Shown here: piece after piece, positions 1 to 61,878 of the stretch
How positions within the stretch are numbered: position 1 is the stretch's first letter
Layout: every line of letters starts with the position of its first letter
IMG/VR virus record: IMGVR_UViG_3300042275_000518
Location: 125,902-189,901 of that record
Direction: 5' to 3' (one strand)
DNA length: 64,000 nucleotides
From: a virus
Lineage: Duplodnaviria > Caudoviricetes
The notes under the pieces: generated by a model
The model's database searches: none
The model's input: the letters and a program-made list of their open reading frames with translations, nothing else
Told to the model about the DNA's origin: nothing
Program-made: the position numbers and the translations under genes

Positions 1-2693
1 TATTGGATTGCGTTACCCATATTTTAATTTTGTTCAGTTAAGCTCGCTAAACTTAACTCGCTTTCGCAGCTCATACTTTCATATGAGATCAGACTATATC
101 TTCATCCTATTATTCTAATAGGAGCTTTCCGTTTCCACTCGCTTGAGTGTACTCTACTCCTCCCAATTTTATATCTTTGAGATTTTCGATAGTCGTTGAA
201 CTTTCTAAAATTTTAATTAATTTATCTATCCTCATGGTTGTTAAATTCTTAATTTCTAGAAAATTATAACCTTTAGATAGTGCCTTCTCTTTTTTTGTTT
301 TATCTACAAGTCGTCTGTGTTTTAAATCATCATCTGTCATATTTCATTTCTTTTTATAGTGTTGTTGTCCGTGCAATTCTAATATTAAATTAAATTTAGG
401 TATATAAAAATCAAAAGGTCTTGATTTCAGATATTCATCGGTATCGATCTTGAAATTAAATATACTTTCTATTTTAATATTATTTTGAAAATATTTTTCT
501 GGCCTAGACATATTTTCATATTTAGAACACTCCGGACATCCTTGAAAATTATATTTATGTTTTCCTGGTAATATTTCAAAATCACCATGTATTGGACACG
601 TTACTATAATTTTTTTATTCATATTAATATACTCTGTTTTAGAATAGTCATATTTATTTTCGAATATATTATTACAAATATTAGTGAATTTATTTTTTTC
701 TAACAGATTTCTTTTAATATTATCTTTTTGTGTGTTTTCCATACCACATTTTTCACAACCACCATGTATAGTTGCAAAAAGATGATTGTTTGGTGTTACT
801 AAAAATTCACCATGTTTTATACAATTTATTCTTACTTTTTTCTTATTATGTTCATAAACTGTATTTTCATATGTAAATCTTTTACTAAATTTTTCTTTAG
901 ACTTGTTTATAAAACTTTCAGTTGTAACTTTAATCGGCATAATATGCACCTCCTATAAATTATTGTTTATAGTACTGAGTTGCATTTCTTAAAATTTTAG
1001 CTTAGCTGCTGATTGTCTTCGTCATTACACGGTCAGAGTTTCCAGCAATTAGAAAAGTGATTATTCCCAGGCAGTTACGCAATAGTTTACCAGGGATTGT
1101 TTCCATTTATGTTCAGTTAAGTTCGCTAATCTTAACCCGCTTTCGCAGCTCATATTTTCATATGAGATCAGACTATATCATCATCTTTTTATAAAGATGT
1201 CTTGCGCTTCCACTCGCCTGAGTGTACTTCCTTTCGGAATAGTCGTTGAACGTTCCTCTTAATTGAGGCTTCGCTGCTGATTGTCTTCGTCATTACACGG
1301 TCAGAGTTTCCAGCAATTCACAAGATTTTACAATATATAATTTCTTATATATGGGACAAAATTTATCCTGTTTCAAATAGTTGATATTCGCCTTTGTTGG
1401 GAATATACTTGTTGAAACTTTTTGATTAATGTGGTTGATAAAGATAACAATAATATTTGCTTCTTTACATGGTTGTACTAATCTTTTCATTCATTATGTT
1501 CAATTAAGCTCGCTAGACTCAACCCGCTTTCGCAGCTCATACTTTCATATGAGATCAGACTATATCTTCATCCAATTTATATATTGGAGCTCCTTGTTTC
1601 CACTCGCTTGAGTGTACTCTACTCACTTCCATCTTTCGATGTGTTTTCGATAGTCGTTGAACTTATATTATTTCATAATATAAGCTGCTGATTGTCCTCG
1701 TCTTTACGTTAGGAGTTTCCAGCAATTAAAGAAGTTTCCTATTGTATATTACTATACAATGAGCCAATCACTTAGCTGTGTGTTTGCTTTTGCTGCCGTT
1801 GTCTTTCATGTTACGAATGTTCGTTAAACATTCTCTATATATTTCTATATAGAACAGACTATATCATCATGTTAAAACTATTTAACATGCCTTGCGCTTC
1901 GAACTCACTTGAGTCCTACTCTACTCAGTTATTCATTCAGATTAAGTTCTGAATTATCTTTTCGATAGTCGTTGAACGTTCCTCTTACTTAGTAGAGGCT
2001 TCGCTGCTGATTGTCTTCACCATTATGTGGTCAGAGTTTCCAGCAATTCACAAGGTTTTCTATTTAATAACAATAATAATTTATTATTAAAAAGGGCCTA
2101 CATTTTTAAGCCGACATTTGTCCAGACATTTCATCTGAAAACATATCATCTCTTGGCATCATCATTGCTGCAGAGTCAACTATCATAATAGTTGGCGGTA
2201 GCATTGTTTTTAATTGTCCAGTTTTATGGTCGATAAATCCCTCTTTGTTTTCAATTGTAAGTTCTTTCTTATACTTCAATTTAAGAGTTTTAATTTGCTT
2301 AACCATTTCTAAGACAGTTTCGGTTGCAATACCTGTTTGTTTTACTGTAACCTTTTCATCATACTCTTCATCCGTTAGGCCTGTTACGGCTTTAATACGT
2401 GCTTCACCATGTGATTGCTCAAAGTCTAATATAAACAAAGAACTTTGTTCATATCTCTTTAAGATATTTCCAGCGATTTGAAGAGCCATTGTTGATTTAC
2501 CTGAACCTGGTTTTCCGATAATTGTGACAACTTTTCCAGCGTCAATACCAAGATTAAGATTGTGTCTGCCACGATTACCGTTTAAGTAATCTAAAATTGG
2601 CAAACCAGTTTTAATCATCATTTGGTCATCGGCATAACCGAATTTAGGATCATCAATGATTTCTTTTAATTCTCCTATAAAATTTTTTCCCAC
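1..2693 (-). CDS. recA: RecA/UvsX-like recombinase, spliced. Exons 2109-2693, 1774-1802, 1365-1491, 1089-1103 and <1-17 (continues beyond the window)
   Basis: Walker A GKPGSGKS, LDFEQ, Walker B IMIVDS. GTG start at 2693 after GGAGG. Removing four introns gives a continuous frame ...SGQMSA|TTAAKANTQL|MKRLVQPCKEANIIVIFINHINQK...YLKQD|ETIPG|GNAIQY, with RecA-type INH and PGG motifs. Confidence 0.9.
18..1088 (-). mobile_element. Group I intron 4 of recA (1071 nt) carrying a homing endonuclease
   Basis: Core motifs flank an ORF. Intron 5' segment ATTGCGTAACT can pair (P10) with 3' exon GGTAACGCAAT; terminal G at 18. Confidence 0.9.
110..940 (-). CDS. Intron-encoded homing endonuclease (CxxH/CxxC zinc-ribbon repeats plus C-terminal PD-(D/E)XK/Vsr-like domain), 276 aa with one TGA=Trp at 344-346
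   Basis: ORFs 344..949 and 110..340 are in the same frame, separated only by TGA AAT. FDFYIP..ILELHGQQHYKKK[W]NMTDDDLK..DKTKKEKA..GYNFLEI completes the nuclease domain. SD GGAGG, ATG at 940. Confidence 0.85.
1104..1364 (-). mobile_element. Group I intron 3 of recA (261 nt, no ORF)
   Basis: P1 GGAU/GUCC, conserved core, terminal G at 1104 followed by the 15-nt exon GAA ACA ATC CCT GGT. Confidence 0.9.
1492..1773 (-). mobile_element. Group I intron 2 of recA (282 nt, no ORF)
   Basis: P1 AGCU/GGCU, same P/Q/R/S core, terminal G at 1492; the junction CT|A forms a Leu codon before ATG AAA AGA. Confidence 0.9.
1803..2108 (-). mobile_element. Group I intron 1 of recA (306 nt, no ORF)
   Basis: 5' exon ends in U (GGCU pairs with intron GGCC). 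Core AATTGCTGGAAAC..AATCAGCAG..TTCAACGACTA..GATATAGTCT, terminal G at 1803, frame restored. Confidence 0.9.
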
Positions 2694-2788
2694 TGTGTTT
2701 CCTCCTCTAGTAATAATATTATGTTTCGGGATATTTAAAGCTTTCAATTCTGAGTTATATGCTACAACCATTACATCAACTCAAGGTT

Positions 2789-61800: not shown

Positions 61801-61878
61801 TTAATTAAAGCTATACAAGAACAACAAGAACAGATAGAATTATTAAAAATAGAAATTAATGAATTAAAAAAAGAATAG
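58828..61878 (+). CDS. Terminal tail fibre with YadA-head repeats and C-terminal S74-type intramolecular chaperone, 1016 aa with TGA=Trp at 58981
   Basis: SD GAGGAGGT; MAKLSSSRVYGSL; FLRGDGT[W]; AIAIG..A.A repeats; SDIRDKADI..GVKAQQV..FIPLLIKAIQE. Confidence 0.85.
59137..59484 (+). repeat. Tandem ~171-nt coding module (DTNTTYSISAVDSG..SGDNITIAS); further copies near 60295-60450 and 53588-53760
   Basis: Directly visible in protein and DNA. Confidence 0.85.

Follow-up and report, generated by a model that had tools for sequence, protein, structure and literature searches.

Late-biased recoding of stop codons with suppressor tRNAs is already known, as are dual-code phage genomes and recoded jumbo phages. 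In the scheme of Borges et al. (10.1101/2021.08.26.457843), TGA builds up, once a suppressor tRNA has made it tolerable, in the genes expressed at that stage, with early genes remaining readable by a naive host; dual-code phage genomes can be handled by Mgcod (10.1101/2022.06.29.495998). Here we describe a 64,000-nucleotide stretch of phage DNA (the window, to which coordinates refer unless stated otherwise), the final 64 kb, positions 125,902 to 189,901, of the IMG/VR record IMGVR_UViG_3300042275_000518 (the contig). In-frame TGA codons read as tryptophan (Trp) interrupt several of its genes. We interpret this pattern, with a probability of about 0.78, as suppressor-tRNA-mediated, late-gene-biased opal recoding in an AR9-like jumbo phage, with the code partitioned by promoter class.

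The code 4 phages of Borges et al. (the Agate and Jade clades and others) resemble this phage in using in-frame TGA as Trp together with a phage tRNA(UCA), in concentrating recoding in structural or late genes while other genes stay compatible with the standard code, and in their low GC content, depleted TGA stops and close relatives that differ in the extent of recoding. They differ in several respects. The present phage is an AR9-like jumbo phage with two RNA polymerases (RNAPs), and comes from wastewater rather than the animal gut; its partition is tied to two explicit promoter motifs, its suppressor appears to lie behind a promoter of the late class, and homing endonucleases form a major recoded class. 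In addition, no 'code change module' of tryptophanyl-tRNA synthetase (TrpRS) and release factor 1 (RF1) was seen in the 218 kb examined here, nor did this sequence yield any identified lysis gene. The amber-recoded crAss-like and Lak phages, which read TAG as Gln and have metaproteomic validation (PMC9523058), likewise show block-wise or late-biased use of a reassigned stop and a phage suppressor tRNA, but differ in stop codon, amino acid, lineage and host phylum.

With Bacillus phage AR9/PBS1 (PMC5312081; PMC5449584), the phage shares split beta/beta' RNAP genes, an essentially identical promoter consensus, introns with homing endonucleases and a genome size of probably about 250 kb. AR9 has one tRNA, whereas this phage has 24 tRNAs, a transfer-messenger RNA (tmRNA) and the suppressor; its late consensus reaches on to TATATG, and protein similarity is remote. 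In the literature searched, we found no report of stop-codon recoding in AR9 or in AR9-like phages, nor any that links recoding to the promoter classes of the virion and non-virion RNAPs. The additions made by this genome are an AR9-like lineage from wastewater and a code partition that maps near-perfectly on two RNAP promoter classes, together with the likely control of the suppressor by a late promoter and the prominence of homing endonucleases among the recoded genes. Opal recoding is extended to AR9-like jumbo phages outside the gut, in an unusually clean dual-code genome whose AR9-mapped motifs almost perfectly predict where TGA may be sense, and a code switch during infection becomes directly testable in a lineage with well-understood transcription machinery. 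Coding-density screens (for example, with a +10% threshold) and table 11 annotation would miss or fragment the fibre, terminase and homing-endonuclease genes of such a phage.

The contig is 189,901 nt long at 31% GC, is classed as linear by IMG/VR and has an estimated completeness of 74% (CheckV); near-identical sequence occurs in numerous wastewater metagenome runs, and no RNA run was among the sequencing runs listed. Because its PHROG matches include tail sheath, a portal-like virion protein, GroEL, an NAD-dependent ligase and five separate open reading frames (ORFs) of RNAP beta/beta' type, we assign it to a phiKZ/AR9-type jumbo phage. The contig covers about three quarters of the genome of this AR9/PBS1-like phage, which has two multisubunit RNAPs and two promoter classes. 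Megablast against phage records gave no DNA-level relatives, and tblastn gave remote matches only. Two contigs extend the sequence. On the left, the IMG/VR contig G001, which has an identical sheath gene, adds 24,004 nt and has no tRNA; on the right, the Logan contig L018 is 100% identical to the final 3,599 nt and adds 4,336 nt. A scan of IMG/VR for the right-end gene produced no match. The genome is therefore at least 218 kb (189,901 + 24,004 + 4,336 nt), above 200 kb, and its full size is probably about 250 kb, with about 38 kb still unseen.

When the window is translated with table 4 instead of table 11, fragments merge into eight intact genes containing 28 in-frame TGAs, exactly as the original prediction had claimed, and all of its coordinates for these codons check. 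Every one of the 28 interruptions is a TGA, and none of the merged genes contains TAA, TAG or a frameshift. Three encode LamG-domain tail fibre-like proteins: 45746..47590 (+; 3 sense TGAs; PF13385, E = 8e-47), 49883..52957 (+; 7 sense TGAs and 17 TGG) and 55692..58757 (+; 12 sense TGAs and 8 TGG). A tail spike-like protein is encoded at 58828..61878 (+; one sense TGA at 58981; phrog_4636, E = 7e-31) behind a late-type promoter at 58790. Two are HNH homing endonuclease genes. The first, 110..949 (-; one sense TGA at 344; phrog_559, E = 8e-34), neighbours group I introns and lies behind a late-type promoter of its own at about 971; the second, 29162..30184 (-; one sense TGA at 29903), has a late-type promoter at about 30216 and a phrog_559 match (E = 1.6e-73) that runs uninterrupted across the TGA. 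The remaining two are a late-unit gene with a Tad6-like C-terminal domain at 6927..8300 (-; sense TGAs at 7146 and 7083; true start probably at 8249) and a late gene of no assigned function at 32308..33060 (+; one sense TGA at 32545), whose ATG lies 2 nt past the predicted start site of a strong late promoter at 32291 (score 23.4).

Codon-usage scores are positive on either side of every TGA. Given that a random frame at 31% GC encounters TAA or TAG about every 17 codons, frames of about 1000 codons that are open but for TGA are far beyond chance expectation. The 12-TGA gene is fully covered by Logan contigs from other wastewater runs with zero differences, and the identity of these independent assemblies indicates that the sequence is not an assembly artefact; no TGA/TGG polymorphism was found at recoded sites in the four runs compared. 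These data bear on whether the interrupted genes could instead be pseudogenes or products of assembly or sequencing error. Decay is possible for two TGA-bearing HNH genes, which are shorter than their paralogues and whose TGA is not aligned with a conserved W. Taken together, the exclusive use of TGA, the coding scores, the identical assemblies, the occurrence of W opposite TGA in homologues and the presence of the same trait in relatives effectively refute this explanation for the fibre and head genes, and we regard it as highly improbable overall.

To assign the amino acid, recoded genes were aligned by BLAST to external homologues (n = 31) obtained from a search with the 12-TGA fibre protein. 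The residues found opposite TGA were W 73 times, F 30, Y 21, L 21 and G 12. Individual positions of the 12-TGA fibre had W in 11 of 14 (residue 18), 12 of 13 (residue 577), 7 of 13 (residue 608) and 7 of 7 homologues (residue 911); residue 422 of the fibre at 49883..52957 had W in 10 of 13, and at residue 6 of the fibre at 45746..47590, W and H (9 each) were jointly the commonest. A relative whose portal is 70% identical (L008/L009) has TGA opposite TGG of this phage in a homologous head gene, along with additional in-frame TGAs of its own. In GIY-YIG motifs, TGA occupies positions where W is expected. The dominance of W in homologues and the TGA opposite TGG in a relative show that TGA is Trp rather than glycine or selenocysteine. 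The original prediction had identified Trp from paralogues; the assignment holds on the evidence above, whereas of the roughly 20 TGA positions that could be aligned between paralogues alone, only 2 had W, and the HNH paralogue alignment was uninformative on the residue.

A tRNA able to read these codons lies just outside the window. The divergent intergenic region at the right end (from 63890..64000) runs off the contig and continues on L018, where a tRNA with anticodon UCA is encoded at L018 3876-3950 (-), that is, 387-461 nt past window base 64000 on the window's + strand. It was called by both ARAGORN and the Rfam tRNA model (60.1 bits), has A1-U72, G73 and an encoded CCA end, and fits the standard 71-position model with a short variable region. 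When the best 25 full-length matches listed from phage records are considered, tRNA-Trp is the annotation of 20 and no other tRNA is named for any; identity to the phage's own tRNA-Trp(CCA) is only about 58%. A late-like AACA-N6-TA site at L018 3973(-) places the predicted start site 8 nt upstream of the tRNA 5' end, and no early-class site was found on that strand; the early promoter at L018 4013(+) faces the other way and belongs to the final two genes of the window. Since a late-like motif stands in front of the tRNA and no early motif does, tRNA(UCA) is probably switched on with the late genes. The original prediction had called for a switch such as a phage tRNA-Trp(UCA) or inhibition of release factor 2 (RF2): the tRNA was found, and RF2 inhibition is unsupported.

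Within the 190-kb contig itself, no tRNA(UCA) was detected by ARAGORN (including at low threshold), Rfam or a scan for UCA-anticodon hairpins. The 24 tRNAs and tmRNA encoded there include tRNA-Trp(CCA). An Rfam tRNA match at L006 5025-5087 (-) was rejected as a degenerate Phe-like pseudo-tRNA (33 bits, GAA loop, truncated T arm), which ARAGORN did not call. Hirsh-type suppression by the phage tRNA-Trp(CCA), which has a U11-A24 pair, was dropped as the main mechanism once tRNA(UCA) was found; this pair is also normal in Bacillus. Searches of the contig for an RF-1 domain (PF00472), TrpRS or tyrosyl-tRNA synthetase (PF00579) and cytidine deaminase (PF00383) gave no match, which is not evidence of absence because the genome is incomplete, and Pfam searches of the genes around tRNA(UCA) returned nothing related to translation. 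At least 119 viral contigs in IMG/VR contain the exact anticodon arm of the suppressor (a 15-mer with UCA), and many of them are of low GC and have tRNA-Trp-like 5' halves; opal-suppressor tRNA-Trp genes are therefore common in uncultivated phages. The scan gave no close relative.

The structure of this tRNA also bears on whether UGA might encode selenocysteine, or glycine as in code 25. ARAGORN labels the gene 'SeC (tca)', but it lacks tRNA-Sec architecture, fitting the standard model with a short variable region and with tRNA-Trp relatives. G occurs opposite TGA 12 times compared with 73 for W, and the presence of up to 12 TGAs in one gene makes selenocysteine implausible. We consider either assignment scarcely credible.

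Promoters were located with position matrices seeded on the motifs of the original prediction and refined over the contig, with a score cut-off of 12. The late class, GAACAATnnTTTATATG, has 41 sites, 36 of them intergenic, and the early class, TATATATTATAAnnnTG, has 32 sites, 27 of them intergenic, in a genome that is only 13% intergenic. Both de novo motifs match the consensus sequences mapped experimentally in AR9, AACA-N6-TA/G for late and AAATATATATTAT-N6-G for early promoters (PMC5312081). The strongest late-class site (36146..36169, +; score 25.1) heads the structural and tail-fibre block on the + strand. Further late sites in the window lie at 971(-), 2817, 3408, 4332, 9581(-), 16309, 30216(-), 30829(-), 31730(-), 31748, 32291, 35204 and 58790; an 'AACA' motif upstream of 55692 falls in a terminator hairpin loop and is probably not a promoter. 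A representative early-class site (28166..28189, -; score 23.0) heads a 21-gene unit without sense TGA, and other early sites occur at 2804, 4300, 9833, 15136, 19087 and 31163 (all -).

The late consensus runs beyond the AACA-N6-TA of AR9 to TATATG, as at 36146, 32291 and 9581, and in this resembles the TATG late element reported for phiKZ. Leaderless late mRNAs were ruled out as an explanation, given that an ORF starts within 3 nt of the predicted start site at only 3 of 36 late sites. Because so few sites use its ATG as a start, TATATG is best regarded as part of the promoter consensus.

Each gene was then assigned to the nearest upstream promoter site on its strand, with early and late labels based on motif identity with AR9. 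Across the contig, early units comprise 149 genes and 25,488 codons with 225 TGG, 0-1 sense TGA and 10 TGA stops; late units comprise 87 genes and 27,206 codons with 192 TGG, 37-39 sense TGAs and 2 TGA stops. The difference in sense TGA is highly significant (Fisher p = 6e-11 to 7e-13), whereas that in TGA stops is not (p = 0.34). In the lone apparent early exception (contig 100791-101666), the real start lies directly downstream of a late site at 101571. Within the window, 37 early-unit genes contain 57 TGG, no sense TGA and 2 TGA stops, in agreement with a claim that about 35 early genes use TGG only, and 35 late-unit genes contain 111 TGG, 28 sense TGAs and no TGA stops. The claim that sense TGA is confined to AACA-N6-TA units holds across the contig, with the TGA stop found mainly behind the TATATATTAT class, and a search for in-frame TGA in early genes elsewhere in the genome found none in the 25,488 early-unit codons. 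The partition is not a strand or regional artefact, since sense TGAs are found on either strand and at positions between 2.7 kb and 187 kb. The trait is shared within the clade: the relative L014 retains this late motif and has some late genes in which TGA is the only Trp codon, without TGG.

TGA also serves as a stop. In 12 of the 245 gene models the end is a TGA beyond which the frame continues only briefly and looks non-coding; at eight of these the stop and the following start codon overlap as ATGA, and one more lies in a terminator stem. Since sense TGA makes up about 0.07% of codons, chance predicts only about one gene with a TGA in its last eight codons, which argues that these ends are real stops. 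For one or two of them, which lie in homing endonuclease genes, the TGA may be a Trp codon at the C-terminus, so that genuine TGA stops number about 10, mostly in early genes. Two of these had been proposed originally, and both are genuine by their context. The early-unit gene 3801..4241 (-), behind an early promoter at about 4300, stops on TGATGA in the stem of a terminator hairpin followed by a T-run; the early-unit gene 24892..25089 (-) ends on a TGA that overlaps, as ATGA, the start codon of the gene behind it, and that gene begins with a P-loop-like motif. No PHROG family was found for either gene. The +4 nucleotide context showed no useful difference between sense and stop TGA.

These stops weigh on a further possibility, that the host uses code 4 and lacks RF2, so that TGA is always Trp and the pattern reflects gene history. 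The phage is AT-rich (31% GC), one weak match is to an Anaeroplasmataceae phage, and the phage tmRNA tag ends in AFA, in which it resembles Mollicute tags. Constitutive code 4 is nevertheless difficult to reconcile with a phage-borne tRNA-Trp(UCA), with TGA as a minority Trp codon (38 TGA versus 430 TGG contig-wide), with about 10 genes ending in TGA at an ATGA overlap or terminator, and with the unexpected lack of any sense TGA in 25.5k early codons. The phage also has strong AAGGAGG ribosome-binding sites, which fit typical Bacillota better than Mollicutes. Overall, we view a code 4 host as quite unlikely.

Under the reading we favour, suppressor-mediated recoding, early-type genes transcribed by the virion RNAP would be readable by the host's standard code, with no internal TGA and with TGA kept as a stop. 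The phage opal-suppressor tRNA-Trp(UCA), once present, would compete with host RF2 for UGA and decode it as Trp. Only genes translated at that stage, namely late-type units transcribed by the non-virion RNAP, would tolerate a change from TGG to TGA. The largest numbers of TGA have built up in the Trp-rich LamG tail fibres and in homing endonucleases. The suppressor gene would probably be turned on together with the late genes. The data above establish that the genes are recoded, that TGA is Trp, that the phage has the tRNA and that sense TGA is partitioned between two motif classes; timing, the promoter in front of tRNA(UCA) and a standard code in the host are inferred.

The role of the partition itself could be explained in two ways. 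In the first, which we advance tentatively and think more doubtful than probable, the code switch is wired into the polymerase cascade: tRNA-Trp(UCA) would be made only from its AACA-N6-TA site by the non-virion RNAP, and the TGAs would act as a second, translational lock. Such a lock would keep homing endonucleases and receptor-binding fibres silent under early or leaky late-gene transcription, and UGA decoding would appear together with late mRNAs. In the second, whose chances we place not far short of even, decoding is the same and the partition is a passive by-product: AT-biased TGG-to-TGA change would be effectively neutral only in genes translated in the presence of the suppressor, and drift would be quickest in genes that evolve fast, have a low-copy product or are mobile. 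Consistent with this proposal, 22 of the 38 sense TGAs lie in the three Trp-rich LamG fibre paralogues, homing endonucleases account for five of the 13 merged genes on the contig and for seven genes when two likely cases are added, and the highly expressed core late genes for sheath, portal and RNAP beta have none. L014 is further along, as gradual drift predicts, and a similar route of 'detoxification then accumulation' was proposed by Borges et al. The uneven spread of TGA among late genes favours at least a large neutral or drift component. Sequence alone does not separate a by-product from a regulatory lock, since zero TGA in 25.5k early codons is expected equally under both.

Several observations weigh against suppressor-mediated recoding partitioned by promoter class. 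Approximately 74 of the 87 late genes have no TGA at all, suggesting that late expression is necessary but not sufficient for its presence. Two late-unit genes end in TGA, so that the original claim that no late gene does so holds in the window and fails genome-wide. For the tail-fibre genes, the nearest-upstream rule reaches back 7-12 genes, and the early and late timing of the two classes is suggested by motif identity with AR9 alone. The late-like site before tRNA(UCA) scores 10.3, under the cut-off of 12 that defines the 41 late sites. The presumed standard code of the host is an inference, which fits the TGA stops with ATGA overlaps and the phage-borne suppressor. Finally, 12 TGAs in one gene would require very efficient suppression, and no RF2 inhibitor, RF1 or TrpRS was found, with about 38 kb of the genome unseen.

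Genome-wide, the affected genes encode tail fibres, head-region proteins, terminase and homing endonucleases. Outside the window, sense TGAs occur in a GIY-YIG endonuclease gene (contig 2769-3581; three TGAs), two head-region genes (contig 6781-8613 and 8626-10323), an HNH gene (contig 72846-73868; four TGAs), an HNH gene in the tRNA cluster (contig about 100791-101534) and, probably, an endonuclease gene at contig 120654-121418. In the left 24-kb extension, they occur in the terminase large subunit gene, another GIY-YIG gene and one gene without assigned function (one TGA). The seven TGA-bearing homing endonucleases (contig 2769-3581, 72846-73868, 100791-101534 and 120654-121418; window 110-949 and 29162-30184; L017 5492-6157) are of the GIY-YIG and HNH types and often have their own AACA-type promoter. 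Three long HNH paralogues (about 500-565 residues) have no sense TGA. A late restriction on when the endonucleases are expressed may lie behind this pattern, or else their exchange between recoded phages.

The terminase large subunit gene (L013 7943-9886, -) straddles the left end of the contig and continues into contig positions 1-9. Its terminase matches are N-terminal (residues 2-204) and C-terminal (residues 422-562), about 200 residues apart, and two TGAs lie between them; an intein, insertion or intron may account for the gap. Group I introns were detected with Rfam (81-111 bits) at window 1149-1374, 1536-1783 and 1835-2117 (-) and at genome 32280-32534 (L002 13280-13534). Three of these four stand in tandem directly upstream of the HNH gene 110-949, and an intron-like segment is common to the upstream regions of the HNH genes 110-949 and 29162-30184.

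In the gene at 6927-8300 (-), residues 380-447 match Tad6 (PF25188, a type I Thoeris inhibitor; E = 5e-13) across both TGAs. This Tad6-like domain is readable only via the two TGAs, and the gene belongs to a late-promoter unit. At the edge of the tRNA cluster, a c-di-GMP-I riboswitch aptamer was found at genome 87276-87350 (L005 11276-11350, -) with 55.8 bits, above the gathering score. The phage tmRNA (genome 96376-96715; L006 1376-1715, -; 156.7 bits) encodes a short tag, ANTQELAFA, whose AFA ending is unusual. Finally, a record with 55% GC, L010 (IMGVR_UViG_3300042363_001848), encodes a portal-like protein 61% identical to its counterpart in this 31% GC phage, indicating that GC content shifts strongly inside one phage lineage.

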